Shown one piece after another: positions 1-20,437 of a stretch of 64,000 bases of DNA; within the stretch, counting starts at the first letter, position 1; every line of letters starts with the position of its first letter. The position numbers and the translations under genes are program-made. The stretch lies in contig JANQFL010000087.1 of the NCBI GenBank assembly GCA_028277845.1, positions 13,704-77,703 on the forward strand, read 5' to 3'. The notes under the pieces are model-generated. The model searched no databases, was not told where the DNA came from, and worked only from the letters and a program-made list of their open reading frames with translations. The DNA comes from Sneathiellales bacterium. Its GTDB lineage: Bacteria > Pseudomonadota > Alphaproteobacteria > JANQFL01.

Positions 1-489
1 CGTGTCGACCCCGATCGGAATGCGCACCAGTTTGTCGCGCGGCACGCCCCAGTCCAGCAGTCGCCTCTCCATCACGGACGCGGCCGTGACCACTTTGTCG
101 AGTTTGCCAAGCGTGGCGAGGAACCGCTCGACATGGCGCGCCGCATCAGGGCCGTCTTCCGGTTTGCCGTGGAAGTACGTGACCACATAGCGGTTGGATG
201 CGGACAGGGCTTCGGACCAGACCTCCCACAAATACTGTGAGCCGAAGTGAGCCACGCTATTGAACAGTTGTTCCGGCCGCGACGTCAGCATGGCGGTGCC
301 CGCCGCCAGTGCGTTGACGCCTTCGGTGATGTAGGTGCCGTCCCAACGGGTCGACCAGTTGGCGTTTTCGGCAATAAAGGCGACGGGCGGTGTTGCCGGC
401 CTATACAGTCCGATGGCATGGGCCAGGGCATAGGATCGCCCGGCTAGGTGCCGGGCCATTTGCCGGAGCTGCGGTTGCAACGCGGTCAT
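1..489 (-). CDS. glycosyltransferase (GT4-like), N-terminal ~163 codons only; the 3' end of the gene lies beyond the window start
   Basis: Manual translation of the minus strand from the ATG at 489..487 is open to position 1 (MTALQPQLRQMARHLAGRSY...KLVRIPIGVDT). The start overlaps the upstream methyltransferase stop (ATGA). Absent from the ORF track because no stop falls inside the window. Confidence 0.45.
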   Translation of the reverse strand, partial: MTALQPQLRQMARHLAGRSYALAHAIGLYRPATPPVAFIAENANWSTRWDGTYITEGVNALAAGTAMLTSRPEQLFNSVAHFGSQYLWEVWSEALSASNRYVVTYFHGKPEDGPDAARHVERFLATLGKLDKVVTAASVMERRLLDWGVPRDKLVRIPIGVDT

Positions 490-1286
490 GTATCGGATGC
501 CGGTTTTCTGGCGACGGCCAGATACATGTGAGCGATCAGCCCGCCGGGCACGAACGGTGCCAGAACGACACTCAAGCCCTTGGTCACGAGCCATTCGTAA
601 GGCAGGCCGAATTCGTGATGCAACGACCGCAGGACGCCTTGCCGTTTGTGGATCGGCTTGACCGTTTCTACATCGAAACCGCCGAAGGTCAATTCACGCG
701 CCAGTTCTGCGCGGGTCAGGCGCCACTGGTAGAACTGGGAAACGTCGGTCGTATGCCGCCGCGGCAGGCGGGCAAAGGTTCCCCGCAGGGCATGACGCAA
801 ATTGTCGGCGGGAACCGAAATGAACAGCAACCCGCCCGGCTTGAGAATGCGCCAAGCCTCACGGATGCACGGCTGCAGGCCTTCTTCGAAATGCTCGAAC
901 ACGCCCCACGACAGGTAGGCGTCGAAGGTGTCGTCGGCAAATCCGGTGCCGCGGATGTCGCCGGTCACGAACTCCAGGTCCGGAAACAGTTCGTTGAGCT
1001 TGGCCACCGTTTCCCGGCTCAGGTCGAGGCCGGTCACCTTGTAGCCTTGCTTGGCCAGTTCGACCGGCCAGTCGCCCATGCCACAGCCGCCGTCGAGAAT
1101 ATGTCCGCCCGCCGGGACCGAGGACAGATAGGGCGCGATGACTTTGTACTCGTTCTTGCGGGTGATCGACTTGGTGGCCCGGGTCGGACCGCCCATCTCC
1201 TTCCACTTGTCGGTCCAATAGCGTTCGACAAAGGCGATCGAGGTTTCGTCCGCCGGCAGGTCGCCGACCATTACGTCCTTACGCAT
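486..1286 (-). CDS. class I SAM-dependent methyltransferase
   Basis: 266 aa ORF with glycine-rich SAM-binding motif ILDGGCGMGDW followed by the acidic loop VTGLDLS. Confidence 0.8.
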   Translation of the reverse strand: MRKDVMVGDLPADETSIAFVERYWTDKWKEMGGPTRATKSITRKNEYKVIAPYLSSVPAGGHILDGGCGMGDWPVELAKQGYKVTGLDLSRETVAKLNELFPDLEFVTGDIRGTGFADDTFDAYLSWGVFEHFEEGLQPCIREAWRILKPGGLLFISVPADNLRHALRGTFARLPRRHTTDVSQFYQWRLTRAELARELTFGGFDVETVKPIHKRQGVLRSLHHEFGLPYEWLVTKGLSVVLAPFVPGGLIAHMYLAVARKPASDT

Positions 1287-1316
1287 GCAACGTGTTCCGG
1301 ATTCTTGTGGGCATCG

Positions 1317-2342
1317 TCATACCGGCAACTGGGCGCAGACCGCTTCGACCGGTGCCCGCAACAACCGGCGCCGCGCGACGATGTCGTCCCGGCGCGAAAC
1401 CAGTGTTTCGAACAGGCCCACATAATCGCTGCACATCCGTTCGGCCGTGTAGGGGTAATCTTTCAGAGCGGTGCGGAATTCACCGTAGCGCAGAAACATG
1501 TCCTGCAACGCCGATACGAATTCATCGCCTTCGAATATCAGCCCGAAGCCTTTTCCGTATTCCGGCAACGCGCCGCTGTTACGGTACAGCAAAGGCAACC
1601 CGCACATCGCACCTTCAATGTGATGCATGCCGCCCGGCTCGTTGACGGAACCGGTGATATAGACGTGATGGCGGCGCAGTTCGGCGGCCAGGTTATGGCC
1701 GCCGAGCGGTTGAAGATGCGTGGCGTTGTGGAACGCGAAGCCCTTCGGCACGTTGCCGACATAGGTGAAGGCGATGCGGTCGCGCCAGGCCGGGTCAGCC
1801 AGCATCCGGTCCAACTTCTGGTAGACGTCGAAACCCTTGAGCCAGTTGCCGCCCCAATGATGTGTCACGAGCCGCATGGGTTCGCCGCCGTTCCACTCGG
1901 CGTGGCCGGCGTCATGGAATACCGACGCGTCGGCACCATTGAAAATGACGGAGTGCGAGCGGACATCGTCGGGCTGCCAGACCGCCAGATCCTTGAGCCA
2001 ACTGGCTATGAACACGGTGTGGTCGGCACAGTAGTTGGCCAGGCGCAACCGCCAGTTCATGCCGCGGGTGTTCTTGCGTTCGTCACACTCGTTGATGCGG
2101 TGCACGACGACGGCACGGCGGTTCTTCAGCAATAGGTAGCGGAACGCATGACCATGGGTGAAGCAGGCGACCGGGTTGCGAAACCGCGGATCGGTGATCA
2201 GGATGATGTCGATGTCGCCGTCCTTCAGGTCGAACACGACGTCGTGCCCGGCATCCGTCAAGGCGTCCGCAAGGGCCTTGGCAAATTGATTGCCGCCACC
2301 CCAGGGTCCGTCGTGAACCTGGTGACCCAGCGCGACCTTCAT
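1317..2342 (-). CDS. glycosyltransferase, GT4-like
   Basis: Start placed at internal Met (MKVALGHQ), whose ATG overlaps the stop of the upstream gene by 1 nt; the ORF-track N-terminal extension is Arg/Pro/Gly-rich and looks non-coding. C-terminal EPGGMHHIEGAMCGLPLL resembles the GT4 donor-binding region. Confidence 0.6.
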   Translation of the reverse strand: MKVALGHQVHDGPWGGGNQFAKALADALTDAGHDVVFDLKDGDIDIILITDPRFRNPVACFTHGHAFRYLLLKNRRAVVVHRINECDERKNTRGMNWRLRLANYCADHTVFIASWLKDLAVWQPDDVRSHSVIFNGADASVFHDAGHAEWNGGEPMRLVTHHWGGNWLKGFDVYQKLDRMLADPAWRDRIAFTYVGNVPKGFAFHNATHLQPLGGHNLAAELRRHHVYITGSVNEPGGMHHIEGAMCGLPLLYRNSGALPEYGKGFGLIFEGDEFVSALQDMFLRYGEFRTALKDYPYTAERMCSDYVGLFETLVSRRDDIVARRRLLRAPVEAVCAQLPV

Positions 2343-3478
2343 CAGGCGGCCATCCTCGGACAGCGGTTCTGGATGGTGGCCACCAGGTCTTCGATCGAGC
2401 GGTTCATGCGCGCCAACGGAAAGGCCTGCACCGCGGTCTCCCGCGCCGCGGCGCCGATCTGGCGGCGCATCTCGGAATCGGCGCGCAGGCGGCGGATGGC
2501 ATCGGCCAGATCCGCCCGGTTGCCGGGTTCCACCAGCAGACAGTTCTCGCCGGACCGGAACACGTCGGGGTCCCACAAACCCTTGATGCGCGACAGCACC
2601 ACCGGCTTGCCACACGCCATGGCCTGCAGGGTGACGCTGTAGCCTGTCGGTTGCCAAACGTCCTTCAATGGCACCGCGACAATGGCCGCGCGGCGGTACA
2701 TGTCGCGTAGGACCTCATCGGTGACCTGCGAACCATGGTAGCTGCCGCGGATCAATTCGATCTCGGCGCGGCCGCCGGTGTCGACCGCCAGCCGGGTCAG
2801 AACTTTGATCGCGCCGTCATACCCGCAGGCGAACAGGGACGCATAGTCCCGGCTCGGGTCCGAACCGACCGACAGAACATATTCCTCGGCCAAGCCGTCG
2901 TCCGAGGGCGTCCAGAAATCGGTGTCGATGCCGAACAGAAACAGGCTGGTCTTGCTCTCATCCAGGCCGAAACGGCGCACCGATTCCTGCCGGTCCGCCT
3001 CGCCGAAGAAGAACAGATGATCGAGGCCGGCAAGCGCGTCGCGGACCTTGGTGTTTATGGCCCAACTGACCGGCGGCTTGACCGTCGTACCGATATCCGC
3101 AAGTCCGTGAAATCCGCCGGCGATCACCGACGAAATACCCGCCCGCTTGCCGTACAGGCCGAGGGACAAGCTGAACCAGTCGGTAAAGGTCAGGGCCATC
3201 GCGGCGCTGGAAACTTCGTTGCGCAAGGCGTTCACCCGTTGGCGACTGAATCCCGAGTTGCTCCAGCGGTTGCGCAGAATTTCCCATTGCAGCAGGCCGT
3301 TGTTGACCAGTCCGGGAGGGTCCTGACGCGTGTCGGCCATGGCGACGCGGCCGCCGATGTCGCGCAGATGCAGAAAGCCGTAAAAGAAATCCTTGGGTAC
3401 GGTGCCCGATGCCAACTCGCCCAGCCGCTGCTGGCGGCTGTTGCTGGGGAACAGGAACAGAATTGGGTTGTCGGACAC
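2342..3478 (-). CDS. glycosyltransferase family 4 (GT1-fold)
   Basis: 378 aa ORF with GT4-like C-terminal half (GENCLLVEPGNRADLADAIRRL). Confidence 0.7.
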   Translation of the reverse strand: MSDNPILFLFPSNSRQQRLGELASGTVPKDFFYGFLHLRDIGGRVAMADTRQDPPGLVNNGLLQWEILRNRWSNSGFSRQRVNALRNEVSSAAMALTFTDWFSLSLGLYGKRAGISSVIAGGFHGLADIGTTVKPPVSWAINTKVRDALAGLDHLFFFGEADRQESVRRFGLDESKTSLFLFGIDTDFWTPSDDGLAEEYVLSVGSDPSRDYASLFACGYDGAIKVLTRLAVDTGGRAEIELIRGSYHGSQVTDEVLRDMYRRAAIVAVPLKDVWQPTGYSVTLQAMACGKPVVLSRIKGLWDPDVFRSGENCLLVEPGNRADLADAIRRLRADSEMRRQIGAAARETAVQAFPLARMNRSIEDLVATIQNRCPRMAA

Positions 3479-3492: not shown

Positions 3493-4464
3493 TCAGAACG
3501 TTTGCCGGTACCAGCCGATCATCTTGTCCAGTCCCTGCTCCAGCGAGACCCGAAACGCGAAGTCGGGCACGATGGCGCGGAACCGGCTCATATCGGCGCT
3601 CTTGACGAACCGGCCTTCCGGTCTGGACGTATCGGTCTGCAGCACCGGGTCCAGGCCGCCGAGCCGGCAGATCAGAGCGACCAGATCGGTCATGCAGATG
3701 GTTTCCTCGGTGCCGATATTGATTGCGCCATTGCTGTGCCCGGACGCCACCAGCAACGCCATCATTTGGGCGCAGTCGCTGGCGTGGACGTAACTGCGGC
3801 GCTGTTTGCCGCTGCCCCAGATGACCACCGGATCGGCACCGTCCATCACCCGCTTCACCAGCATGGGGATGGCCTGGCTGAATTCGCCCATCCAGTTGTA
3901 GCGCTCGCCGTAGATGTTGAATGGCCGTACGATCGTCATCGGAATGCCGGACTCGCGGCCGGCGATCAGCGCCTTTTGCTCAAGAAATCGCTTGGCCCAC
4001 CCATAGCCCCAGTTGACCGCCTCGGGGTCGCCTTCGAACAGCGGTAGTTCGGGTACCGTGTCGGGACCGTCATCGGCGTAGACGCAGGACGACGAGGTAA
4101 TGAGAACGTGCTCGGGTTTGTGGACGCAGACGGCATCGAGTACGGCATTGGTGATGCGTTCGTTGTGCTGCAGGATGTCGTAGTGCCGGCCGGCCGCGTA
4201 ACCGACGCCGTAGGCCCGGCTGGCCAAATGAAACACCATTTGGGCATCGGCCAGGGCATCGTGCGCGAATTCGGCGATTTCAAGATTGCCTTCGCGGATA
4301 ATCACCTGGTCCGCAATCTGTTTCAGATTCTCGCGCCGGCCTTTGGAAAAATCGTCGACTACGATCACTTTTGCGCCCGCACCTACCAGCTCGTCGCAGA
4401 GATACGAACCGATCAGTCCGGCGCCGCCGGTCACGGCGACGGTCTTGTCGCGGACATTGGCCAC
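3493..4464 (-). CDS. NAD-dependent sugar epimerase/dehydratase (extended SDR)
   Basis: N-terminal Rossmann motif VTGGAGLIGSYL and catalytic YxxxK (YGWAK). Confidence 0.8.
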   Translation of the reverse strand: MANVRDKTVAVTGGAGLIGSYLCDELVGAGAKVIVVDDFSKGRRENLKQIADQVIIREGNLEIAEFAHDALADAQMVFHLASRAYGVGYAAGRHYDILQHNERITNAVLDAVCVHKPEHVLITSSSCVYADDGPDTVPELPLFEGDPEAVNWGYGWAKRFLEQKALIAGRESGIPMTIVRPFNIYGERYNWMGEFSQAIPMLVKRVMDGADPVVIWGSGKQRRSYVHASDCAQMMALLVASGHSNGAINIGTEETICMTDLVALICRLGGLDPVLQTDTSRPEGRFVKSADMSRFRAIVPDFAFRVSLEQGLDKMIGWYRQTF

Positions 4465-4474: not shown

Positions 4475-5350
4475 CTAGTCGTCCAGTTCATAGCCGACGG
4501 CACGGATCTCGGCCGCGAGTTCTTGTTCGATCAGCCGGCGTTGGTGCGCGTTTAAAGTCTGTTTCCAGCGATACAGCGGCGATTCACTCACCGTGGTCAT
4601 ATTGTCGTAAGACGAATTGGCGGCGATAGGTTTCCCCAACCGAGACGGTTGCAGAACGCAGGGATCGAAATCGATGCCGATGAAGTCGCACAGGCTGCGC
4701 ATGGTCTTTTCGGTATCTTGTACCAAATCCTCGTAACGCAGGCCGTAGGCGTTCGGCTCGGGAGAGATCCAGAACCGGTTGGCCACATTGCGCCACAGGC
4801 CGCAGAAATCAACGAGTTCATTGTCATCGAACGGCCGGTTGCGGGTCTTTTCGCGCAGTTTGGTGTGGCTGGCAAACGTGGCGCGCGGATCGCGGATCGA
4901 CACCACATACTTGGCCGGGCCGAAGATCTTCTCGACATAGGGAGTCGGCCGCTTGCAGATATTGGCGATATGATTGACCGTCACACCGCGCCGGGGATGG
5001 CCGCAGAACGACGGGAAATAGATCTCCTGAAATAAATCATAGAACTCTTGCAAATTGCGTACCGGTCCAACCCGGCGGCCCACTTTCTCGGTCAACTGTC
5101 CATATGCGCCTTCGCCGTGGATCATTGTAATCATGTCCTCGAGGCGCTGGTGAAAACCGGCCTCGCGCAGTTTTAGGCTTCGCGGCAGATAACGGTAGAG
5201 AGCGAAATAGGGCTGCTTGATTTCGTTTTTGTTGCAGGTATTCCAGTATTCGAACGGGAAGACGTTGCATGCGGGATGACCGTCCAGCAGATTGTTGGTC
5301 AACGTGCCGCCGGAGCGGGACATGGACACGATGGAGACGTTGGTGTTCAC
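4475..5350 (-). CDS. sulfotransferase (PAPS-dependent type)
   Basis: N-terminal 5'-PSB-like motif SMSRSGGT and 3'-PB-like SIRDPRA; 291 aa. Confidence 0.7.
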   Translation of the reverse strand: MNTNVSIVSMSRSGGTLTNNLLDGHPACNVFPFEYWNTCNKNEIKQPYFALYRYLPRSLKLREAGFHQRLEDMITMIHGEGAYGQLTEKVGRRVGPVRNLQEFYDLFQEIYFPSFCGHPRRGVTVNHIANICKRPTPYVEKIFGPAKYVVSIRDPRATFASHTKLREKTRNRPFDDNELVDFCGLWRNVANRFWISPEPNAYGLRYEDLVQDTEKTMRSLCDFIGIDFDPCVLQPSRLGKPIAANSSYDNMTTVSESPLYRWKQTLNAHQRRLIEQELAAEIRAVGYELDD

Positions 5351-5402: not shown

Positions 5403-6776
5403 TCAGGCCGCCTGTTCGGCGACGGTGTCGTCGATCACGTCGACCAGACTCTCACCGTATTCCTTGCCGGTGTCGGCGACGAAATAGCGCGATTCGTCGC
5501 GCAGGCGGTCGGCGACGCACGGGTCGCCGATTTGCGCGATGAGCTCTCCGAACCGCGCCGGGAAATCGTCCTGAGCATCGCATTTAAGGATGCTGGTCTT
5601 GGCGATGAAGTCGTTGAAGTGCACCAGACCGAGATTGTGGTCGTTCGATTGGTTGGAGAGCGGATAGAACATCATCGCCGGCTTGCCGTTGAGCACCGAT
5701 TCAAGCAATACCGTGGAGAGTGGCGACACCACCGCCGAGGCGAGACGCAACAGCCGGTTCATGACATTGTAGTCGGCCAGATACATCGAAGACTTACCGT
5801 CGACGATGCGCTGGCGGTAAAAATCGGCCATGGATGGGTCCATGCTGATATGTTTCCACGGCACGGCAAAGAAGTCTTGTTCCTCGATTCCCAGGCCACG
5901 CCGCCACGGATGCGGTCGGTAAACGACATGAACGTCGGGCGCCTCGCCGCTCTCGATCATGTCGTCCATCATCTTCAGGTAGACGGTTTCGTAGTTGCCC
6001 GAACCGTTGCCGGCATAGAGCACAATACGTTTGCCGTCCGGCACGCCGAACTCGTCGCGCAGGGCCCGCTCGGAGGTATCGGTGGGGCGCCGGTAGACCT
6101 GGAACTGGGCGGCGCCAATCGCGCGCACCCGGTCACCGGCTATCCCCATATACTCGGTCGCCAGGTTCTTGCTGTGCTCGCCCCACACCACCAGGCGGTC
6201 GGGATAGCCCGACGACATGGCCTTGGCCGACGGATTGTCCCACGAGTTCATCAGGGCGATGAACGGGATCTTCCGCCGCTGGCAGATCTGCAGCAGGTCG
6301 TTCATGAAATAACCGCCGAGGACCGACGGATGAACGATGACATCCGGTTGGTGCCGGGCGATGAATTCGTCGAGGGGTTGGTGTGTGCCCATATAGCGGG
6401 TATAGGCGAAGCGGAAAAATGGAAAGACGAAAGGCAAGGCCAGGATGTCGAGGATACGGGTGCGTTTCTCGCCGATGGCGTTGACGACGTAGTTGCGCCG
6501 CGGCTCGTAGTTTCGCTTACCCCTCTGCAGGCGGAGCGCGTTGATCGTCACCAGCCACCACCACATGCCCATGCGCTTGCGCGGTACTTCGACGGTTTCC
6601 ATCTGGGCCAGGCCGAGGGTTGCCGGATCGGTATAGACGCCTTTTTTCTCCGACGTGGTGTCGCTGTGAAACACGTAGGTGACGTCGTAGCGCCGTTCCA
6701 ACGCCTGGAACGCGCCGCTGTGCACGAAATTGCGCACGACGGCATCCATGTCGATGAAGACGAGAGCCTTTTTCAC
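5403..6776 (-). CDS. hypothetical protein, capsule-synthesis/TagF-like fold with RPHP motif; possible (nonulosonic) sugar or glycerophosphate transferase
   Basis: 457 aa ORF with protein-like composition; VVYRPHP motif recalls the KPHP motif of KpsC/KpsS/TagF-type transferases. Family assignment is tentative. Confidence 0.45.
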   Translation of the reverse strand: MKKALVFIDMDAVVRNFVHSGAFQALERRYDVTYVFHSDTTSEKKGVYTDPATLGLAQMETVEVPRKRMGMWWWLVTINALRLQRGKRNYEPRRNYVVNAIGEKRTRILDILALPFVFPFFRFAYTRYMGTHQPLDEFIARHQPDVIVHPSVLGGYFMNDLLQICQRRKIPFIALMNSWDNPSAKAMSSGYPDRLVVWGEHSKNLATEYMGIAGDRVRAIGAAQFQVYRRPTDTSERALRDEFGVPDGKRIVLYAGNGSGNYETVYLKMMDDMIESGEAPDVHVVYRPHPWRRGLGIEEQDFFAVPWKHISMDPSMADFYRQRIVDGKSSMYLADYNVMNRLLRLASAVVSPLSTVLLESVLNGKPAMMFYPLSNQSNDHNLGLVHFNDFIAKTSILKCDAQDDFPARFGELIAQIGDPCVADRLRDESRYFVADTGKEYGESLVDVIDDTVAEQAA

Positions 6777-8950: not shown

Positions 8951-8982
8951 GTCATCTGCTCCACGCTGCAAGGCCGATCGGT

Positions 8983-10149: not shown

Positions 10150-10197
10150 GACCTGTCTCTGCTTTTCGTGAAGTTGTTGAGTCTGAAAGCGCCGGAT

Positions 10198-10932
10198 CTA
10201 AAGTCGGGATCCGTCACTCATGTGAGGGAGTTCGATGGCGCCGCTCGACAGCAGCGCCTCCGCAATCGGGAGGTCTTCGGGACCGTCTAGGTCGAGGCCA
10301 TAGCGCGAGTCAATGCCAATTCCCGCGCAGGGCTCCGCATAAAACCCCGATCCATCGCGCAAGGCGTCCGTCCGCGCCGCGATCAGATTGCCGAACACCA
10401 TCAGTTTCGGCTTGTTCTGTTTCAGCCGTGCGCTGCCGCGTTCCTCGGCAAACAGAAAGCCGACCCGGCCGTCGGCATCCAGCTGCCTCTGGTTCCAGGC
10501 GTGGCTGTTGTGTGCCACGGCGATGACGTTGTGGGCCGATCGTGCCGCGCCGTCGCGTTCGAACACGCCCAGCAGTTCCTCGACATGGACGGGCAGAAGA
10601 AACGGCGATGTCGGTTGAATCAGCACGATGACGTCGGGCAGCGTTTCGCCCTGGCCGGCCGCGCGTTCGAGATATTCCCGCACTACGTCGTCGACCTTGA
10701 CCGCGTCGCCGCCCAGGTCGTCGGGCCGCCGATCCACGTCCACCCCGAGCGCTATTGCCCGTTGGGCGATGCGGTCGCTGTCCGTCGAGCAGACGATGCG
10801 GTCGAGGCGCCCGGAGGCGATCGCCGCCGTGATGCCGTAATCGAGCAGCGGCCGGCCGGCGACGGACACCAGGTTTTTCAACGGAATGCTTTTCGATCCG
10901 CCCCGCGCCGGGACGAAACCCCAGGCGTTCAT
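10198..10932 (-). CDS. acylneuraminate cytidylyltransferase family (CMP-nonulosonate synthetase, NeuA/LegF/PseF-like)
   Basis: N-terminal PARGGSKSIPLKN motif typical of CMP-NeuAc/CMP-Kdo-type cytidylyltransferases; start overlaps upstream stop (ATGA). Confidence 0.75.
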   Translation of the reverse strand: MNAWGFVPARGGSKSIPLKNLVSVAGRPLLDYGITAAIASGRLDRIVCSTDSDRIAQRAIALGVDVDRRPDDLGGDAVKVDDVVREYLERAAGQGETLPDVIVLIQPTSPFLLPVHVEELLGVFERDGAARSAHNVIAVAHNSHAWNQRQLDADGRVGFLFAEERGSARLKQNKPKLMVFGNLIAARTDALRDGSGFYAEPCAGIGIDSRYGLDLDGPEDLPIAEALLSSGAIELPHMSDGSRL

Positions 10933-11888: not shown

Positions 11889-11895
11889 CGCGGAG

Positions 11896-13050: not shown

Positions 13051-14081
13051 GGTTCGAGAACCTCCCAGGTCAGCGGCGCGTCTGCGGCGACCGGTTGCTT
13101 GAGGCGCTTGCCGATCACATCGGCCAGATCACCGGGCGAGATCCCGGTGCCGGGCCGTTTGGCGGCGACATCGGTTTCGGCGATCACGTGACCGGCCGGC
13201 AGATCGTTGCGGGCAACCAGGGATTTCAGCGCCCATTCCATGCCCGGCCGCTCGCTGGCCGCCGGTTCCTTGCGGCCATGCCCGAGCATGGTCTCGACCC
13301 GTCGGATATCGGCCACCAATTGCGGCAGATCCTCGGGGCCGGCCGAGACCTTCCAGTCCTGGGCATTGGGCACGTCGCGCAGAATGGTGATGTGCTTCTC
13401 GATGATCTGGGCGCCGCGGGCGACCGCCGCAAGCACGGCCAAACCGTCTTCCGTGTGATCGGAATAACCGACCGGGCCGGGGAACGCCGTGCGTATATGG
13501 TCCATCGCACTCAGATTGACATCGGCCGGCGGTGCCGGATAGCTGGTGACACAATGCAGCAGGGCGATATCGGCGCATCCGGCGTACAGGCAGGCGTTCG
13601 TCGCTTCGGCGATATCGTCCAGGCCGTACATGCCGGTCGAGATGATCATCGGTTTGCCAAGCGCCGCCAGACGGGCCAGGAAGGCTGGATTGCCGCGCTC
13701 GCCCGAGCCGACCTTGACCGCCGGCACATCCAGGGTTTCGAGCCACGGGATACGGGTCTCGTCATGGGCGGTCGCCATGAACAACAGCCCGCGGGCTTCG
13801 CAGCGTTCTTTCAGTTCGACCGCCTGATCCAAGGTCAGGTTGCGCGGCCGCAACCGGTCCTGCCAGTCGGCGGCCCGGTTGGAGATCAGTGCCTCGACGT
13901 CGAAAAACTGGGTCTTGAAGACATCCGCGTTGGCATCGGCCGCCAGGTCCACCAGGTCACGGGCCAAGCCCATGTCGCCGAAATGGGCGACGCCGGCTTC
14001 GGCGATGAACAGGCAGGGTGCGTCACCGCCGACCCGGCGATCGCCGATGCGGAACGAAGACACCGGCTGAAGGCTGTTCAT
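13047..14081 (-). CDS. N-acetylneuraminate synthase family (NeuB/LegI/PseI-like nonulosonic acid synthase)
   Basis: Start at internal Met (MNSLQPV) giving ATGA overlap with the upstream ABC gene stop; NeuB-like TIM-barrel region plus C-terminal SAF-like domain. Confidence 0.8.
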   Translation of the reverse strand: MNSLQPVSSFRIGDRRVGGDAPCLFIAEAGVAHFGDMGLARDLVDLAADANADVFKTQFFDVEALISNRAADWQDRLRPRNLTLDQAVELKERCEARGLLFMATAHDETRIPWLETLDVPAVKVGSGERGNPAFLARLAALGKPMIISTGMYGLDDIAEATNACLYAGCADIALLHCVTSYPAPPADVNLSAMDHIRTAFPGPVGYSDHTEDGLAVLAAVARGAQIIEKHITILRDVPNAQDWKVSAGPEDLPQLVADIRRVETMLGHGRKEPAASERPGMEWALKSLVARNDLPAGHVIAETDVAAKRPGTGISPGDLADVIGKRLKQPVAADAPLTWEVLEP

Positions 14082-15925
14082 GAGGACCCGCCCTGGCCCG
14101 TGGCGGCCACCGGGGGCTGCTGCGCGAGGGCATGAAACAGCTCGGTCGACCGGTACAGCGACTGATAGGTGCCCTGTGCCGCCAGGCGGCCGTCTTCGAG
14201 GACGAAAATGGTATCGCACTCGGCGATGGTGGAAATGCGGTGGGCGACGGTGATGGTGGTCACTTCGCCTTTCAGTTTGGCCACCGTATCCTGGATCAGT
14301 TTTTCGGTGCCGGTGTCGAGCGAACTTGTCGCCTCGTCCAGCACAAGGATATCGGGCGCGTCATACAGCGCCCGGGCAATGGTGACGCGCTGGCGCTGAC
14401 CGCCGGAAAGCCGCAGGCCGCGGTCTCCCATCACCGTGTCGAGGCCGTCATCCAACTCGGCGACCACGTCGGTCAAGCCGGCCTTGTCGAGGGCGCGGCG
14501 TACCTTGTCGTTGTCGATGTCGGCGTCGGGCACGCCAAAGGCGACATTGCGCCGCAGTGTATCGTTGGCGATGAACGGCGACTGAGGCACATAGCCAATT
14601 CGGCCGAACCAGTTCGATCGGGCGAAGTCGGTGATGTCCGTGTCATCCAAACGCACGTGACCGTCGGTCGGCGGCAAAACACCGAGCAGGATGTCGACGA
14701 ACGTCGACTTGCCCGCGCCCGATGGGCCGACCACGCCGACCGATTGACCGCGGGCTATCGCCAGGGAAATGCGATCGAGCGCGGTGGCGGTCGTGCCCGG
14801 GTAGGAAAAACTGACGGCATCGAAGTGGATGGCCGACCACTCGTCCGGTACCTTGGCGCCACCACTGGGCTTCCCCCATTCCGTTTCCGCCGCCGCCAGT
14901 TCGGCGCGCAAGTCGGCGAGTCCCCTGGTATAGGCCCTGACCTTGGCCAGTTTCGTGATGGTACCGACAACACGGGACAGGGCAGGGATAAGACGGGCGC
15001 TGATCAATCCCAGCAAAGCGACCTGCGAGGCGATTTCGCCGGTGCTGGCACCGGCACCGAACAGGGACACCGCGACGATGATCAGTCCGAGCTGGCCGGT
15101 CAACAGCAGCCCCATCGGCACGGCCCGTTGCAGCAGTTGCGCCTTCATACGGCTTGTGGCGGCCCTGTGATAGAGACGTGTGTACATGCTGGTGAAGAAC
15201 CCTTGACGGGCCTTGACCTGGATATCCTTGATGCCGTTGACCGCCTCGACGCCAAGCTGGCTGCAATGCAGCCATTGGGTCCGTTCGTCGGCGGCGTAGC
15301 GGGCGATGCGTGGGCGAATGACCGCCATCATCATGACGGCGGCGAAGGCGATAATCGCGGCGACGGCAACGATCGCCTGCCACGGCAAGGCAACCGCCAC
15401 CACCGCAAAGGCAAAGACAAGCAGCAGCGAGGTGTACACCAGCTCCATGACCGTCGGATACAGCGACACCGCCGTGTTGGTCGGATCTTTGTAGAGCCGA
15501 TGGGACAGCATCGCCGCATTCTGGCGCAGGAACCAGACATAGGGTGCCTTGAGGCAGCGATTGAGCAGGTCGTTGGCCAGATAACGCCCGATACGGACAC
15601 TGAGGATTTCGGTCATGAACAGCGAGAAATAGCTGCCGATAACGCCCAGAACCAGCAGGCTCGCGGCGATAAGGCCGAGCATCTGGATCAACTCCCGTTC
15701 CGTGTCGGTCGCCAGGATATCGGCGATCTTTTGCAGCCATTCGCTGCGCTGAAGCATGGTCGGTTCGACCACCAGCGTCACGAAAGGCGCCGCCGAGGAT
15801 AGGGCGACCATTTCCAGGGCGCTGGTGAACACGAACAGCAGCAGGATCGCAGCCGCGGCAGTCTTCTGCCGGGCCGTCAGGAACGACCAGCCGATGGCGA
15901 CGATATTGGTTGACGGTTTCGTCAT
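14078..15925 (-). CDS. ABC transporter, fused permease/ATP-binding exporter
   Basis: N-terminal hydrophobic helices; Walker A GPSGAGKST, signature LSGGQRQR, Walker B ILVLDEATS. Start at Met 21 (MTKPSTNIV) avoids overlap with the upstream gene. Confidence 0.85.
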   Translation of the reverse strand: MTKPSTNIVAIGWSFLTARQKTAAAAILLLFVFTSALEMVALSSAAPFVTLVVEPTMLQRSEWLQKIADILATDTERELIQMLGLIAASLLVLGVIGSYFSLFMTEILSVRIGRYLANDLLNRCLKAPYVWFLRQNAAMLSHRLYKDPTNTAVSLYPTVMELVYTSLLLVFAFAVVAVALPWQAIVAVAAIIAFAAVMMMAVIRPRIARYAADERTQWLHCSQLGVEAVNGIKDIQVKARQGFFTSMYTRLYHRAATSRMKAQLLQRAVPMGLLLTGQLGLIIVAVSLFGAGASTGEIASQVALLGLISARLIPALSRVVGTITKLAKVRAYTRGLADLRAELAAAETEWGKPSGGAKVPDEWSAIHFDAVSFSYPGTTATALDRISLAIARGQSVGVVGPSGAGKSTFVDILLGVLPPTDGHVRLDDTDITDFARSNWFGRIGYVPQSPFIANDTLRRNVAFGVPDADIDNDKVRRALDKAGLTDVVAELDDGLDTVMGDRGLRLSGGQRQRVTIARALYDAPDILVLDEATSSLDTGTEKLIQDTVAKLKGEVTTITVAHRISTIAECDTIFVLEDGRLAAQGTYQSLYRSTELFHALAQQPPVAATGQGGSS

Positions 15926-15950: not shown

Positions 15951-17654
15951 TCAATAATCGGCGATGAACTTGTAGCTGTCCGCACGGTCCATCTTGTAGG
16001 AATGGTAGTGCATCCGGTCGGAATGGAACCAGCCGTGCAGCAGATCGGTTTCCTGTTGCAGCGGGGCGGGATTGTCGCTCACGACCTTCCGGTAATCCTC
16101 ATACAGGGCGAAGATCGCCGAATCGTCGCCGGTGACGAAACTGTCCTGCCAATCGGGATGGCAGAAGAACCAACCGGCAAAGACCTTGGCGCTCTCCCGT
16201 GTCTTGGCCAGATCCAGGTCGTTCCACCAGGGCCGTTTGAGGCAATCGATGTATTCTTCGCGGGATCGGCACCAGGTGCCGACGCCGCAATCGTGGAACC
16301 AACCGCGGTCCGCCATCAACGACGGCTTGCCGAGATACGCGTATTCGATGGCGGCGGTGCCGGTACAGGTGATGACGGCGTCGACGCAGTCCATCACCGC
16401 CCGGCCGTTCCAGCCCTGGGGCGCTATCTGGACATGGCCGGCCATGCGCTCGCCGATATAGTCGGCCAACGACGCGCCGCCGTACCACAGATCGCAGGGG
16501 TGGGGCTTGAACAGCCAGTAGACGTCGGTGTTTTGCTTGGCGATATCGACCGTCAGGGAAATCCAGTCGAGATAGTCTGTGAAGTTGTTGAGCCCGAACA
16601 CGTGCGGATAGTCGAACCAGTTGGAGGCATAGACGCCGACGATGGGCTTGTCCTCGGTCCAGCCGAAGCGCTGGCGCAATTGCTCCCGGTCGATGTGGTC
16701 GTTGGCGTTGATGTAGGCATACAAGGTGCCCAGATCCAACGTCTTGCCGTTGAGGCGGTTGTCCAGGTACGAGCCGCCGACCTCGGACAGGGACCCCAGC
16801 TGTTGCGGGCTCAGGTTTCGGGCGTGTTCGACCGGCAGGCGGTCGACCCAATCGAAGATGGCTTCGCGCGAGCGGATCTTCCAGTATCGCGGCACGCCGT
16901 AGCAACCGTACAGCACCACCGCCGGAATACCGAGCGATAGGGCGACATAAGCCAGCGCGCCATAACGGAACTCGATGACATGGCTGAGGATCAGCAGGGA
17001 CGTGCGTTCGGCCGACAATATGCGTTCGGCGGCGTCGATGCTCAGCAAGGCTTCGGCGACGTGGTCCTCCAGTTTCGGGTCCGCCATGTCGATGGTGCCG
17101 AGGCGGCGACGCTTGAGAATGCCGTCATAGACCCAGCCGCCGGGAAAGCCGTGCGGCAGGTCCCATTCCATCATGTCTTCCGGACGATCGGTCATATCCA
17201 GAAGCTGTCGTGCCCGGCGGCGGGCGTCCTTGAGGCCGGAACGGAAGTGTTTTTCAAACCGCACCGTGTCATTGATGCCGAGACGGTTCATGGTCTCCTT
17301 GGCCTCGCGGGTGCGCCACTTGCCGACGATGCCGACCTCGTTGGCGGTCGGCAGCCCGAGGGCCTTGCGCAACAAGGTCAGGCGCCACCAGTAGTTCGGA
17401 TTGAACCACATGCCGTCGATCAGCACCCGGTCCGGGAACGTCTTGTCCGTCGACTCGGCGATCTGCCGGAACAGATTCTCCGCCGGAATTCGCTGGCGTT
17501 GAATCTCCTGCCAGCGCGCCCGTTCGGACGGTGTGATTCGGCGGCGCAGCATTTGGCCCTGGGCGTAAAGGTGCTTCGCCGCGGTTAACATGCGCGAAGA
17601 GGCCTTCGACAAGGGCGACGGACGGGTATTTGATTCTGAGGTGGAAACGGTCAT
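15951..17654 (-). CDS. capsule-polysaccharide-biosynthesis-like protein (KpsC/KpsS/LpsZ-like fold with KPHP motif); candidate glycosyltransferase
   Basis: 567 aa with WLFKPHP motif. Family assignment tentative; start could also be Met 22 (17591). Confidence 0.45.
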   Translation of the reverse strand: MTVSTSESNTRPSPLSKASSRMLTAAKHLYAQGQMLRRRITPSERARWQEIQRQRIPAENLFRQIAESTDKTFPDRVLIDGMWFNPNYWWRLTLLRKALGLPTANEVGIVGKWRTREAKETMNRLGINDTVRFEKHFRSGLKDARRRARQLLDMTDRPEDMMEWDLPHGFPGGWVYDGILKRRRLGTIDMADPKLEDHVAEALLSIDAAERILSAERTSLLILSHVIEFRYGALAYVALSLGIPAVVLYGCYGVPRYWKIRSREAIFDWVDRLPVEHARNLSPQQLGSLSEVGGSYLDNRLNGKTLDLGTLYAYINANDHIDREQLRQRFGWTEDKPIVGVYASNWFDYPHVFGLNNFTDYLDWISLTVDIAKQNTDVYWLFKPHPCDLWYGGASLADYIGERMAGHVQIAPQGWNGRAVMDCVDAVITCTGTAAIEYAYLGKPSLMADRGWFHDCGVGTWCRSREEYIDCLKRPWWNDLDLAKTRESAKVFAGWFFCHPDWQDSFVTGDDSAIFALYEDYRKVVSDNPAPLQQETDLLHGWFHSDRMHYHSYKMDRADSYKFIADY

Positions 17655-17687
17655 AGCTGCGTTAAGTATCGGCGCCGGTCGGGGCGG

Positions 17688-18617
17688 TTAGACTTCATAT
17701 CCCAACGACGTCAGATCGTGGTCGAACATGGTGGCCAGCTTGCGGTTCGATTCGCGCCATTTCTCCCGCGCCCAATCGGGGACATGCCGGTCCACTTGCG
17801 CCAACGTCGTATCGCGCTTGTTGGGAAAACGCGATGACAATAGGCGCGCCGCCTGGCGGGCCCGCAGATGAGCCGAAAACGGCAATATGCCGGCCTCGTT
17901 GTGCTGGGTCTGGCAGAACCGGTTGGCAAACCGGTACAAACCACGCCACGGTTCGGAGAACGACACATTGACCGGTTCCTGACGCGGTTCGAAGTCCGGG
18001 TCGACACCGATGAATTCAAAGATGTCGCGGAAAAACCGGGTCCGATTGGCCTTGAGGTCCTCGAAGAACAGCACCTTGAAGTTTTCGCGGCCGAACTTCT
18101 CCTGGGCATAGGCGACGTAGCGGTCGTAGCACAGCTTCTCGAAGATATTGAGATGGCCGGTGCGCTCGAAATTACCACGCGGAATGTTCATGCTGATGGC
18201 CGGCGACGCGTGCTCGGACAGGAAGCCCTTCACATCGAGTACGCCGCCTTCCATGACATAGGCGTTCCAGGCCGAGCGCACGTAGGATTTCTGTTCGCGC
18301 AGGACGATGAACGCCTTGACGCCCGGCATAAGGTCGCTCAGCAGGTCGATGATCATGCGCGCACCGGCGCCGTCGAAGGCATGACCCGACATCGCTTCGG
18401 CGCTGAACACGGATTTCTTTGCCGCCGGCTTGGCATTCGAGAACGGCATGGCCCGCAGCTTGTCGAGGAACGCCGCACGGTCGAATTCAAAGGAATAGTC
18501 CCGCAATTCGAAGAACAGCCCCTTGTGATCGCGCCAGGAAAAATTGATCTCCGGATGCGCGTCCATGGCCACCATCTGCAGGTACGACGATCCCGTCTTG
18601 GGCAGGCCAAGATGCAA
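17688..18617 (-). CDS. sulfotransferase (second copy, different family from 4475..5350)
   Basis: PAPS-binding-like LHLGLPKTGSSYLQ motif. The ORF-track N-terminus overlaps the upstream gene by ~200 nt and is Arg/Ser/Pro-rich, so a non-ATG start near 18617-18656 is inferred (TTG at 18617 chosen; CTG at 18632 or 18656 possible). Confidence 0.55.
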   Translation of the reverse strand: MHLGLPKTGSSYLQMVAMDAHPEINFSWRDHKGLFFELRDYSFEFDRAAFLDKLRAMPFSNAKPAAKKSVFSAEAMSGHAFDGAGARMIIDLLSDLMPGVKAFIVLREQKSYVRSAWNAYVMEGGVLDVKGFLSEHASPAISMNIPRGNFERTGHLNIFEKLCYDRYVAYAQEKFGRENFKVLFFEDLKANRTRFFRDIFEFIGVDPDFEPRQEPVNVSFSEPWRGLYRFANRFCQTQHNEAGILPFSAHLRARQAARLLSSRFPNKRDTTLAQVDRHVPDWAREKWRESNRKLATMFDHDLTSLGYEV

Positions 18618-18657
18618 GACGTCGAACGGCAGGGCGTTATCCGATCGGCTAGGCAGG

Positions 18658-19365
18658 TTATTGGGCAACGGTGTTCTGCTCCAAGGTCGATGACTTGAGC
18701 GCGCCGATGACCTCGTGCGCGCTCGCCGTGGCCCAGGACGGGCCCAGTGTATCCATGATGCGGTGGGCGCGTTCCAGATCCTCCACGGTATCGACGGAGA
18801 CGTTTTGCTGCGACAGGTCTTCATCGAGGCAAACATTTTCAATGCGAAACGCATCGGTGTAACGGTACATGTGGCGGGTCAGGTGTTCGCGGTCTTCCGG
18901 GTCGTCGCTGGCGGCAATGGCGCGCTGCAGCGCCTGTGTCTGGATCACTTCGACGGTCATGCCGACGGGAAAGGAACGGGGAAACGCATTCGTCGCCAGG
19001 TCTGCACCGGTGTTCTGCTGCAAATCCCGCAACTGTGTCATCACATCGATCGGCACGAACGGACTGTCGCCGGTCACACGGATAAACGTCTCCAGGCCAT
19101 GTAATTGCGCACATGCCAGCGCCCGGCCGGCAACATCATCGCACGATCCACGAAACACGCCGACCTGTTCGTTATCCGCCAGTTCCGCAATGGCGTCGTC
19201 GACCGGTCGGTCCGAGGTGGCGACGAAAATCGGCAGCGCGGGGTGCAAGGCGCGCAACCGTTCGAGCACCCGGCTCAACAACGGTTTTCCGGCCAGGGCG
19301 ATGAGGGCCTTGCCCGGCAGGCGCACCGAGTCGAAGCGGGAAAAGACGAGAATTCCGGCGGTCAT
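18658..19365 (-). CDS. cytidylyltransferase, SpsF/PseF-like (CTP_transf_3 type)
   Basis: Start at internal Met (MTAGILVFSRFDSVRLPGKAL), the characteristic N-terminus of this family; the upstream 104 codons of the ORF are low-complexity. Confidence 0.7.
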   Translation of the reverse strand: MTAGILVFSRFDSVRLPGKALIALAGKPLLSRVLERLRALHPALPIFVATSDRPVDDAIAELADNEQVGVFRGSCDDVAGRALACAQLHGLETFIRVTGDSPFVPIDVMTQLRDLQQNTGADLATNAFPRSFPVGMTVEVIQTQALQRAIAASDDPEDREHLTRHMYRYTDAFRIENVCLDEDLSQQNVSVDTVEDLERAHRIMDTLGPSWATASAHEVIGALKSSTLEQNTVAQ

Positions 19366-19369
19366 GGCG

Positions 19370-20437
19370 TCATGCGTTCGACAGTTGGTCCCACGTTTCC
19401 TTGTACCACTGGCAGTACCGCAGATAGCCGTCCTCGAGTGACCAATTCGGCTCGAAGCCCAGTTCGGTTTGGGCGCGTTCCACCGACAATGTGCCGCGGA
19501 TCGGCTTGTCCTTGGCACGCGGGCGTTCCTCCAGGATGACGTTGGGGACGACCTGCTGCACGACCGATGCAAGTTCGGCGATGGTGCGCGCGCTGCCGCG
19601 CGTGATGTTGAAGGTCTGCGACGCCGGTTTGCCGGGATGGAATGCCAAGGCTCGGATGATTCCCTGTACCAGGTCATCGATATAGGTGAAGTCCAGACGG
19701 CCGTCCCCGCCGCCTTCCAGCAGCAATGGCTTGCCGGTCATGGCGTTCTCGATGAAGATTTGGCTGACCCTGCGGCTGACGCAACGTTCGCCATACAGGG
19801 CGCTGGGGCGGATGATCGACGTGCCGATACCGTGTTGGTGGTTGTAGGTGCGGACCAGCCGTTCAGCCATATATTTGGTGTTGGCGTAGATGCCGCGCGG
19901 CCGCGGACGGGTGCTTTCGTTGACGCTGTCGCCCTCGAAGTCGCCATACACCGTGCTCGAACTCATCAGCATGACAAGATCGACGGGCGCCGCTTCCATG
20001 CGCACCAGTTCGAGCACGTTGCGCAGGGTGATCAGCTGCAAATCGAAACACAGGCCGGGGTCCTTGCGGGCCTGAACGGCGCTGGCGATCGCCGACAGAT
20101 GCACCACCTTGGTCGGCTGGTAGTCATGGAACCAACGCATCAGTTCGACCGGGTCGCGGGCGTCGGCGTTGCACAGTTGGATACCCGCGTCCTTCATCAT
20201 GGCGAACCGCGTCAGCAGGAAGTGCCGGTAGATCCGGCTTTCCAGCGGATCGGTCCGGGCTCCGTAAACGCTGTCGACCAGGCTATTGACCATGAGATTG
20301 TCGAGAACCATGACATCTATGCCCAATCGCCGCAGCTCAAGCGCCAGGTGGTGGCCGATGAAGCCTGCACCGCCGACCAACATGACACGGTCGTTTTCCA
20401 GTTTCTTGGGTACGGCGGCGTAGGAGAGGTCAGTCAT
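19370..20437 (-). CDS. NAD-dependent epimerase/dehydratase (extended SDR); first gene of the glycan island
   Basis: Rossmann motif LVGGAGFIGHHL and catalytic YANTK; AAAGGA-like RBS about 10 nt upstream of the ATG. Confidence 0.8.
   Translation of the reverse strand: MTDLSYAAVPKKLENDRVMLVGGAGFIGHHLALELRRLGIDVMVLDNLMVNSLVDSVYGARTDPLESRIYRHFLLTRFAMMKDAGIQLCNADARDPVELMRWFHDYQPTKVVHLSAIASAVQARKDPGLCFDLQLITLRNVLELVRMEAAPVDLVMLMSSSTVYGDFEGDSVNESTRPRPRGIYANTKYMAERLVRTYNHQHGIGTSIIRPSALYGERCVSRRVSQIFIENAMTGKPLLLEGGGDGRLDFTYIDDLVQGIIRALAFHPGKPASQTFNITRGSARTIAELASVVQQVVPNVILEERPRAKDKPIRGTLSVERAQTELGFEPNWSLEDGYLRYCQWYKETWDQLSNA

Follow-up and report, generated by a model that had tools for sequence, protein, structure and literature searches.

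Sialic-acid-like sugars, the nonulosonic acids (NulOs), are associated with host mimicry and surface charge. Sulfoquinovose is associated with the global sulfur cycle. Genes related to both sugars lie side by side in a 64,000-nucleotide stretch of contig JANQFL010000087.1 (positions 13,704 to 77,703, forward strand; assembly GCA_028277845.1) from a Sneathiellales bacterium. This whole stretch is referred to here as the window, and an operon at its left end is the subject of this work. Judging from its genes alone, the operon is predicted to build and export a strongly anionic surface glycan with a sulfonated NulO. Four of the encoded proteins are central: SqdB-P, a member of the SQD1/SqdB family; NeuC; NeuB-S, a nonulosonate synthase; and NeuA. 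Together they are proposed to make a cytidine monophosphate (CMP)-activated 9-deoxy-9-sulfo nonulosonic acid that would then be transferred, O-sulfated, and exported. We consider this proposal to be evenly balanced between right and wrong.

Several described systems are close to this operon. The NeuC-NeuB-NeuA pathway of Escherichia coli K1 and Neisseria meningitidis produces CMP-N-acetylneuraminic acid (CMP-Neu5Ac). NeuC-type enzymes need a 2-acetamido sugar, and their mechanism goes via 2-acetamidoglucal. KpsC is a CMP-3-deoxy-D-manno-oct-2-ulosonic acid (CMP-Kdo) transferase; KpsC and KpsS are the retaining beta-Kdo transferases of group 2 capsules, with their lyso-phosphatidylglycerol poly-Kdo linker. 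In Tannerella, the members of the BFO_1060 family are transferases of pseudaminic acid (Pse) and legionaminic acid (Leg) derivatives and carry the sialyltransferase HP motif. In NeuB, F112 and F288 are among the substrate-lining residues, E134 adjoins the expected site of the phosphate group of N-acetylmannosamine (ManNAc)-6-phosphate, and the alpha2-beta2 loop is tied to phosphate use in the animal enzyme NANS (PMC8208679). In the SQD1-family enzyme Agl3, the substitution R101A abolishes activity on uridine diphosphate (UDP)-glucose (PMC4388408). The position of residue 101 is the post-beta4 motif, a sugar-binding signature in the short-chain dehydrogenases/reductases (SDRs) that act on nucleotide sugars (PMC12820599). 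In the literature searched, there was neither an SQD1-family enzyme tied to NulO synthesis nor a natural C-sulfonated NulO, and the Haloquadratum genome paper lists sqdB and neuB, separately only.

SqdB-P belongs to the SQD1 family. It matches Arabidopsis SQD1 (1QRR) at 512 bits and about 63% identity, and the 1QRR alignment shows that it keeps the GxxGxxG (GGDGYLG), TMG (GTMGEYG), and YHxxK (FYHLSKVHDS) motifs, with T145, M146, Y182, H183, and K186 all present. The original prediction of an SqdB ortholog is thus right about the family. It does not extend to canonical SqdB, since the protein scores 463.8 bits against the NCBIfam equivalog NF041015 (cutoff 575) and has the motif GEQPSAPYS where canonical members have GEQRSAPYS. 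This replacement of Arg101 by Pro is found in all 46 locus-associated sequences, some only 43-59% identical, and in 120/120 of the closest database homologues. Arg101 is kept in SQD1, Agl3, Sinorhizobium meliloti SqdB, the Palleronia protein, and a 59%-identical Pseudonocardia protein; the Sulfolobus Agl3 motif, AEQRSAP, was taken from published mutagenesis primers. Three further changes, R229S, D231H, and E80R, accompany Pro101 in 44 of the 46 SqdB-P sequences. Position 101 aligns with K84 in E. coli GalE and probably matches G102 in WbpP (Gly in this UDP-N-acetylglucosamine (UDP-GlcNAc)-specific enzyme), presumably a wall of the specificity pocket. The neighbors of the gene also differ from those of canonical sqdB. 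In the window they encode NeuA, a B12 radical S-adenosylmethionine (SAM) enzyme, NeuC, NeuB, and a 457-residue glycosyltransferase with an HP motif (HP457). In the loci examined, SqdB-P is never beside sqdD, sqdC, or sqdX, which come after sqdB in the operons of S. meliloti and Palleronia, and the canonical sqdB-GT8-sqdC arrangement is seen in two comparison loci (L108 and L110). SqdB-P is therefore described here as a non-canonical family member, a predicted UDP-6-deoxy-6-sulfo-sugar synthase that would feed a NulO pathway.

NeuB-S is likewise a distinct member of its family. Its best NCBIfam match is the Neu5Ac synthase model TIGR03569, at 297.7 bits, and the cutoff of 399.65 is not reached. 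Compared to N. meningitidis NeuB, the phosphoenolpyruvate (PEP), metal, and catalytic residues are conserved (E25, K53, Q55, K129, S132, E134, S154, Y186, S213, H215, E234, H236, and D247), and so is R314. The subfamily-specific changes are F112H, C135R/K, N184T, I248W, V249K/R, and F288W, and the alpha2-beta2 loop is shortened and rich in Arg (W-x-x-R-L-R-P-R-N, or LRPRN). The window protein reads H112, R135-G136-N137, and W288 in its pocket, and ManNAc-type enzymes read F112, C135-N136-N137, and F288. In the other NeuBs encoded in this gene layout, the pocket is either that of N. meningitidis (C-N-N and F288, as in L016, L032, L036, and L052) or reads x-x-D at 135-137, which we take to be Leg/Pse-like. 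With a DNA pattern for the NeuB-S motif PNAQDW[KR]VSAG, 47 metagenome loci were fished. Among their sequences, H112 is present in 46/46, R or K135 in 43/46, and W288 in 45/45 (one sequence ends earlier). H112, R/K135, W288, and LRPRN lie outside the search pattern, yet they are kept in members that are only 38-51% identical.

The two unusual enzymes occur together. Among loci seeded with a KpsC-like protein of the operon, seven have a NeuB that is 65-71% identical to that of the window, and in all others the identity is 25-39%. SqdB (70-77% identity) lies within 0-3 genes in 7/7 of the NeuB-S loci, and the roughly 30 or more loci with only other NeuB types do not have it there (Fisher p about 1e-7). 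In the motif-seeded set, SqdB can be seen in 15 loci out of 47, and most of the remaining loci are too short. Where at least 4 kb downstream of NeuB is present, SqdB is found in 7/9, NeuC in 9/9, and NeuA in 9/9. The association also holds in the reverse direction, since four of five contexts of close SqdB homologues have NeuB, NeuC, and NeuA around SqdB. These contexts include a minimal order (ABC, NeuB, NeuC, NeuA, SqdB, HP protein, where ABC is an ATP-binding cassette exporter) and a window-like order with a 2-hydroxyacid dehydrogenase (2-HADH) and a B12 radical SAM gene. In the fifth context, L111, a hydrolyzing NeuC (TIGR03568, 349 bits) is immediately upstream of SqdB-P, and NeuB was not found within 10 kb of SqdB-P. 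The minimal conserved set is SqdB-P, hydrolyzing NeuC, NeuB-S, and a CMP-transferase, that is, a Neu5Ac pathway fronted by an SQD1-type step.

The L111 locus has its own gene content. It lies on a 7.3 Mb contig (European Nucleotide Archive, ERZ25084437), where positions 7358-15679 encode an MBOAT/DltB-like protein, the hydrolyzing NeuC, SqdB-P, and a GmhA-like isomerase. The opposite strand has cysNC, cysD, and kdsD, followed by a WecA/MraY-type transferase. L111 may represent a second use of the 6-sulfo sugar.

In the proposed pathway, SqdB-P would oxidize C4 of a UDP-hexose, most likely UDP-GlcNAc, and dehydrate it across C5-C6. Addition of sulfite at C6 and re-reduction of C4 would yield UDP-6-deoxy-6-sulfo-GlcNAc. 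NeuC would then free UDP and invert C2 to give 6-deoxy-6-sulfo-ManNAc, which NeuB-S would condense with PEP to a 9-deoxy-9-sulfo-neuraminic-acid-like sugar (expected C11H19NO11S, 373.07 Da). In NeuB-S, the sulfonate would be bound by the Arg-rich loop together with the Arg, Lys, and His gained close to the C6 end of the pocket. NeuA would make the CMP donor, and optional tailoring would fall to 2-HADH and the B12 radical SAM enzyme. HP457, and perhaps the KpsC-like protein, would transfer the sugar to an oligosaccharide assembled by the GT4 glycosyltransferases, although the donor of the KpsC-like protein may instead come from the second cytidylyltransferase of the operon. Two 3'-phosphoadenosine-5'-phosphosulfate (PAPS) sulfotransferases, forming sulfate esters, and a methyltransferase would modify the glycan further, and its lipid-linked or free form would cross the inner membrane through the fused ABC exporter. 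It may end up on lipopolysaccharide, in a capsule-like polymer, on a glycolipid, or on a protein. The UDP-GlcNAc route is the most economical because NeuC needs a 2-acetamido sugar, NeuB-S keeps Arg314, and SqdB-P has lost a bulky pocket residue. A route from UDP-sulfoquinovose to a sugar of the 2-keto-3-deoxy-D-glycero-D-galacto-nononic acid (Kdn) type was set aside, given the 2-acetamidoglucal mechanism of NeuC and the retained Arg314, which we take to contact the N-acetyl group in the N. meningitidis NeuB structure.

The original prediction treated sulfoquinovose and sialic acid as two independent pathways, which is probably the wrong parsing. One pathway to a sulfonated NulO is suggested by Pro101, the absence of sqdD/sqdX neighbors, the placement of the gene in the NulO cassette, and the cationic NeuB pocket. 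Two independent sugars would mean that SqdB-P makes UDP-sulfoquinovose from UDP-glucose for insertion by a GT4 enzyme, with a separate, non-sulfonated NulO (Neu5Ac or a variant) encoded next to it and the genes inherited as a block. The strong SQD1 match with its five kept residues agrees with this, as do the NeuC score above the TIGR03568 cutoff, a Neu5Ac synthase as the best NCBIfam match of NeuB-S, and the GT4 genes held by most loci. Archaea also put sulfoquinovose in glycans via Agl3 (PMC4388408). With two sugars, however, the invariant Pro at an Arg that is essential in Agl3 is left unexplained, even at 43-59% identity, and so is a cationic NeuB pocket unlike that of the Neu5Ac-type NeuBs in the same layout. 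The donor cassette also encloses the gene, with the ABC exporter on one side and the HP transferase on the other, and in L111 SqdB-P is paired with a hydrolyzing NeuC in a region where 10 kb contain no NeuB. Two sugars are thus rather unlikely, though they are the most credible of the alternatives. A second alternative keeps a single sugar and removes the sulfite step: SqdB-P would be a UDP-GlcNAc 4,6- or 5,6-dehydratase leading to a 9-deoxy or otherwise modified NulO, and all sulfur would come from the sulfotransferases. Agl3 and SQD1 do act as 5,6-dehydratases when sulfite is absent (PMC8987622), the change from Arg to Pro takes a positive charge from the active-site region, and the Leg and Pse pathways begin with an SDR dehydratase. 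Against this, SqdB-P retains the SQD1-specific TMG motif and H183, and an aminotransferase, acetyltransferase, or 4-reductase that could complete a deoxy-sugar route is missing from the cassette. Moreover, the Arg, Lys, and His gained by the NeuB-S pocket suit an anionic rather than a deoxy substituent, and cysD/cysNC adjoin SqdB-P in L111. We consider a dehydratase improbable. Less probable still, and indeed very doubtful, is that the locus is a conventional island for a group-2-like capsule or for flagellin glycosylation, its special features being sequence drift. Capsule loci do offer precedents for a KpsC-like fold, an ABC exporter, and NulO genes, and NulO islands often serve flagellin. 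Yet the 20 kb contain no KpsM/KpsT (ABC-2), KpsE/KpsD, Wza, Maf/PF01973, flagellin, or flagellar genes, and the other family-scanned open reading frames (ORFs) of the window, about 20 larger ones, are all housekeeping. The ABC protein is of the fused MsbA/PglK/HepA type, the KpsC-like protein falls short of PF05159, and the subfamily signatures are kept across phyla, which means that they are not drift.

The sulfonated NulO reading also has to carry several points that weigh against it. SqdB-P is still close (about 63% identity) to plant SQD1, which uses UDP-glucose, and the admission of a 2-acetamido group by Arg101 to Pro is putative. The same change removes a cationic residue and could instead mean that sulfite binding has been lost. 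The linkage of the two genes could simply reflect block inheritance of one cassette for a glycan with sulfoquinovose plus a separate, unusual NulO, and two NeuB-S loci (L084 and L100) show more than 3 kb after NeuA without SqdB. W248 and K249 were part of the fishing pattern, and their conservation in the motif-seeded loci is circular. The pathway does not account for 2-HADH or the radical SAM enzyme, nor for the second cytidylyltransferase. Finally, the fold match of HP457 is generic GT-B, with 2-epimerases rather than sialyltransferases as the top matches.

The two candidate transferases are distantly related to each other. The KpsC-like protein (546 aa) has 113 homologues, nearly all unnamed, and about 15 of the 113 carry PF05159. 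The window protein itself matched neither PF05159 nor any other Pfam family, and a PDB sequence search was also empty. By fold search, it has a GT-B fold that is closest to KpsC, with the HP motif. HP457 is a GT-B enzyme by fold (confident model, predicted local distance difference test (pLDDT) score of 92), and its HP motif aligns with that of the 546-aa protein (hhalign 76%). Its alignment with the model of the BFO_1060 family is weak and covers only part of it (36 bits, cutoff 200). Because of fold, motif, and context, HP457 and the KpsC-like protein are best read as transferases for CMP-activated ulosonic acids. Both had been predicted to carry a KPHP motif; this is correct for the 546-aa protein (FKPHPC), and the 457-aa protein has RPHP.

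The layout of a KpsC-like gene, a fused ABC exporter, a CMP-NulO cassette, and an HP-motif GT-B gene is found in more than 100 loci from many phyla, with the recurring order KpsC-like, ABC, [NeuB ... NeuA], HP457. A profile scan of GTDB species genomes with the KpsC-like protein yielded 57 loci, with a best identity of 44%. These belong to Methylomirabilota, Binatia, Nitrospiraceae, Sulfuritalea, many Rhodospirillales, Elusimicrobia, Verrucomicrobiota, Planctomycetota, Halobacteriovorax, SAR116, Prochlorococcus single cells, and two cultured Thalassospira. The 18 window proteins were run by tblastn against the 57 loci, and counts were made on the 38 loci of at least 15 kb; many metagenome loci are incomplete at contig ends. 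NeuB is the most frequent partner (35 of the 38), followed by the second cytidylyltransferase (27), the ABC exporter (23), and HP457 and NeuA (17 each). In the same 23 loci out of 38, the exporter is placed between the KpsC-like gene and NeuB. A cultured carrier of the cassette is Thalassospira sp. MCCC 1A01148 (L050).

Two metagenome contigs, L002 and L003, are the closest relatives. Twelve of their genes, among them those for SqdB, 2-HADH, and the two sulfotransferases, are almost collinear with the window, in the order SDR, cytidylyltransferase, (sulfotransferase), KpsC-like, ABC, NeuB, NeuC, 2-HADH, NeuA, SqdB, x, HP protein, sulfotransferase. The proteins of the module are 41-75% identical (median about 55-60%), and the KpsC-like protein is 51-54% identical. 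The pair of sulfotransferases recurs only here, although the first is also found weakly (29%) in L032. The original prediction knew of no characterized locus with this exact gene combination. None was found in the literature searched either, and in this sense the claim holds; the combination is not unique, however, since it recurs in L002 and L003 and the core module recurs in dozens of loci across many phyla. The SqdB-P/NeuB-S cassette and the KpsC-like/ABC/HP-transferase layout appear to be undescribed, and the operon type itself, glycan biosynthesis, is known.

Some individual loci are of interest. The uncultured Prochlorococcus single-cell genomes (L053-L055 and L059) have the KpsC-like/ABC/NeuB layout at 30-31% identity, with a NeuB of the non-sulfo type, which suggests that the layout is also used by marine picocyanobacteria. 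On a Sulfuritalea-like contig (L112, 15578-21002), six class I SAM methyltransferase genes come in a row after the minimal sulfo-NulO cassette. L084 (1-3650) and L100 (1-3350) are from one marine clade and encode NeuB, NeuC, 2-HADH, and NeuA. After NeuA, L100 encodes a thiamine pyrophosphate-dependent enzyme and a 322-aa protein without a family (possibly P-loop), and L084 encodes an SGNH-like protein, a radical SAM/SPASM protein, and a CapD-like fragment.

The operon consists of 18 contiguous minus-strand genes that fill the left end of the window (Table 1). This number and the gene positions agree with the original prediction, as do the gene families, upheld by the ORF list with Pfam and NCBIfam, and the general picture of a single-strand glycan biosynthesis and export operon with NulO genes, an SQD1-family enzyme, and a B12 radical SAM enzyme. 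The left end is cut by the window edge, where the GT4 gene continues beyond position 1. Because the operon runs past the window start, 20 kb and 18 genes are minimum figures; the 18 visible genes are the promoter-proximal ones, starting from position 20437. The five start/stop overlaps that had been described are all present: ATGA at 486-489, 10929-10932, and 14078-14081, GTGA at 13047-13050, and TGATG at 2340-2344. All 17 intergenic gaps are at most 96 bp, and a terminator scan found no terminator-like sites between the operon genes. The short gaps, the overlaps, and the lack of an internal terminator point to a single transcription unit. A promoter scan of 1-20000 found no sigma-70-like sites.

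Table 1. Features of the glycan operon and its right boundary, with positions in the window
Feature	Position	Strand	Basis and remarks
GT4-type glycosyltransferase, N-terminal 163 aa	1..489	minus	PF13439 27.9 and PF13579 20.7 bits, just under Pfam cutoff
Class I SAM-dependent methyltransferase	486..1286	minus	PF13649 and PF08241, ~72 bits; ATGA overlap with downstream gene
GT-B-like glycosyltransferase, weak GT1 C-terminal signature	1317..2344	minus	PF00534 at 19.8 bits only
GT4 glycosyltransferase	2342..3478	minus	PF13692, PF00534
Extended SDR epimerase/reductase, GDP-fucose-synthase-like	3493..4464	minus	PF01370 157 bits; NF047922 109 bits (cutoff 500)
PAPS-type sulfotransferase 1	4475..5350	minus	PF13469 69.4 bits (cutoff 27); SRSGGT and RDPR motifs
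HP457, GT-B glycosyltransferase, 457 aa, RPHP motif	5403..6776	minus	Weak Pfam/NCBIfam glycosyltransferase matches
B12-binding radical SAM enzyme, class B, methyltransferase-like	6821..~8950	minus	Start uncertain; ORF to 9061
SqdB-P, SQD1/SqdB-family SDR	8983..10149	minus	Pro at Arg101 position
NeuA/PseF-like CMP-nonulosonate synthetase	10198..10932	minus	PF02348 63.9 bits; TIGR03584
D-isomer 2-hydroxyacid dehydrogenase, PGDH-like (2-HADH)	10929..11888	minus	PF02826 146 bits
NeuC-type hydrolyzing UDP-GlcNAc 2-epimerase	11896..13050	minus	TIGR03568 347.5 bits (cutoff 235.9)
NeuB-S nonulosonate synthase	13047..14081	minus	PF03102 and SAF domain
ABC exporter, fused transmembrane and nucleotide-binding domains (TMD-NBD)	14078..15925	minus	PF00664 and PF00005; HepA 300, MsbA 286, PglK 242 bits
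KpsC-like GT-B protein, 546 aa, KPHP motif (FKPHPC)	15951..17591	minus	No match in Pfam scan; fold match KpsC
Probable divergent sulfotransferase 2	17688..18668	minus	PKTGSS 5'-phosphosulfate-binding (5'-PSB) motif; weak matches
Second CTP_transf_3 cytidylyltransferase, SpsF/KdsB-like	18658..19365	minus	PF02348 72 bits and PF12804
Extended SDR epimerase/dehydratase, first operon gene	19370..20437	minus	PF01370 140 bits
Nested palindromic element, 273 bp	20469..20741	no strand	Upstream intergenic region of operon, right island boundary

The remaining genes of the operon are shared with other loci to varying degrees. The first gene, an SDR, has counterparts of 72% identity in L002 and L003, which likewise stand ahead of the cytidylyltransferase. 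In the large loci, that second cytidylyltransferase is usually beside a second, Leg/Pse-type NeuB, which is absent here. Two sulfotransferases had been predicted, and the first is well founded at 69 bits against PF13469; it matches the CurM/OLS sulfotransferases in the PDB (E 2e-10) and adjoins the HP protein in L002 and L003 as well. The second is only sulfotransferase-like, under the Pfam thresholds (PF00685 18.7 and PF13469 19.5 bits), with a match to PDB 3RNL at E 3e-4 and homologues of 55-64% in L002 and L003. The NeuC protein is assigned to the hydrolyzing type, as the non-hydrolyzing wecB model gives 69.7 bits compared to its 347.5 for TIGR03568. For the NeuA-like protein, the best equivalog is PseF, at 92.5 bits (TIGR03584, cutoff 205.7), and the HepA, MsbA, and PglK scores of the exporter are all under the equivalog cutoffs. 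2-HADH is found in about 15 NeuB-S loci and is missing from the marine minimal cassettes. The radical SAM enzyme passes PF04055 (36 bits), with its CxxxCxxC motif as CPFRCTFC, and is below the cutoffs for PF02310 (28.1 bits, cutoff 32.1) and for the KedN5 family (144.7 bits, cutoff 700). It recurs in the cassettes of L017, L067, L081, L090, L094, L104, and L114. At the left end, the complete GT4 gene is found again after the HP protein in L015, L032, and L090, homologues of the GT1-like protein (37-53%) are present in L011, L025, L028, L029, and L056, and homologues of the GT4 fragment (42%) adjoin a GT1-like gene in L025 and L028.

To the right of the operon are the genes for a PaaI thioesterase, rplM, rpsI, argC, a gamma-carbonic anhydrase gene, and phaC. 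The roughly 20 larger family-scanned ORFs in the rest of the window are those noted above as housekeeping. GC content at third codon positions (GC3) spans 0.72-0.83 across the island, compared to 0.73-0.88 for the flanks, overall GC is also equal, and no tRNA or integrase was found at the right boundary of the island. Recent horizontal transfer is not supported by this match in composition or by the absence of a tRNA or integrase at that boundary. The palindromic element in Table 1 sits within the 340-bp gap that separates PaaI from the first operon gene. Its terminal inverted repeats are 26 nt long (96%), the inner arms measure 48 nt and 28 nt, and its RNA fold has a free energy of -198 kcal/mol (z = -15). 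No Rfam family matched it, and it is the sole copy within the window. The element could be an insertion like a miniature inverted-repeat transposable element (MITE) or a repetitive extragenic palindrome (REP), or a structured leader at the island boundary.

A few other regions of the window stand out. Two minus-strand ORFs of 760 aa (21218-23500) and 370 aa (23981-25093) are antisense to or overlap rplM, rpsI, argC, and phaC; they are low-complexity, high-GC artifacts and not genes. A tRNA-Glu(UUC) at 32825-32902 overlaps the 5' end of the longest ORF call for an arginase-family gene, and the true start of this gene must therefore lie later. GC falls to 0.54-0.57 at 33000-37500, where two Sel1-repeat proteins are encoded (34860-35855, minus; 36583-37407, plus), and this stretch near tRNA-Glu may be a small tRNA-adjacent islet. 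Multiple EF-hand motifs are unusual in a bacterial protein, and a 296-aa protein with several of these calcium-binding motifs is encoded at 53001-53891; the next ORF (53939-55102) has no Pfam family. Between 55000 and 61000, AT skew is strongly positive, at 0.2-0.27 across about 6 kb, and the region holds the gene for an Mrp/NADH-quinone-oxidoreductase-type membrane subunit (56856-58448, minus).

The broader claim is that bacteria of many phyla make a natural NulO with a C-S bond, either 9-deoxy-9-sulfo-Neu5Ac or a tailored derivative, and we give it slightly less than an even chance. If true, there would be two new enzyme specificities, a UDP-GlcNAc 6-sulfonate synthase and a 6-sulfo-ManNAc-dependent NeuB, and SQD1-type sulfite chemistry would have a second biological fate besides sulfoquinovose. 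The product would be a new class of monosaccharide joining two major topics, sialic-acid-like sugars and sulfoquinovose, and would form a new organosulfonate pool in soil, freshwater, and marine bacteria, including Thalassospira. GEQPSAPYS in SqdB, and H112/R135/W288 with LRPRN in NeuB, serve as simple markers for re-annotation. They apply to genes now labeled UDP-sulfoquinovose synthase or NAD-dependent epimerase, which could otherwise be read as evidence of sulfolipid synthesis. The layout of KpsC-like gene, ABC exporter, NulO cassette, and HP transferase is in itself a widespread, unstudied surface-glycan system.

Compared to the CMP-Neu5Ac pathway of E. coli K1 and N. meningitidis, the operon has the same three enzyme families in the same order of action. 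The window NeuB differs in its pocket (H112, R135, T184, W248, K249, W288, and LRPRN), and in cassettes of the window type an SQD1-family enzyme is embedded, often along with 2-HADH and a B12 radical SAM enzyme. SqdB-P shares the SDR fold and the TMG...YHxxK signature with SQD1, SqdB, and Agl3, but it has Pro101 and sits with NeuC and NeuB instead of sulfolipid genes. The logic of NANS and of bacterial Kdn-9-phosphate synthase is similar, in that a NeuB-type condensation on a hexosamine with an anion at C6 yields a NulO with an anion at C9. Here, the proposed anion would be a retained, C-bonded sulfonate and not a removable phosphate, and there is no accompanying kinase or phosphatase. The 546-aa protein is only about 10-13% identical to KpsC and KpsS (GT107) and has an extra N-terminal helical region. 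In contrast to GT107 systems, there are no kpsM/T/E/D-like genes in the locus or the scanned window, and the partner is a nine-carbon NeuB pathway rather than Kdo. HP457 resembles the Tannerella forsythia Tanf_01245/BFO_1060 transferases in its GT-B/TagB-like fold, its HP motif, and the adjacent gene for a CMP-NulO synthetase, though by its score it is no member of that family. The ABC exporter aligns over its full length with PglK, MsbA, and HepA and has the same fused TMD-NBD build, and its scores lie far under the equivalog cutoffs of all three.

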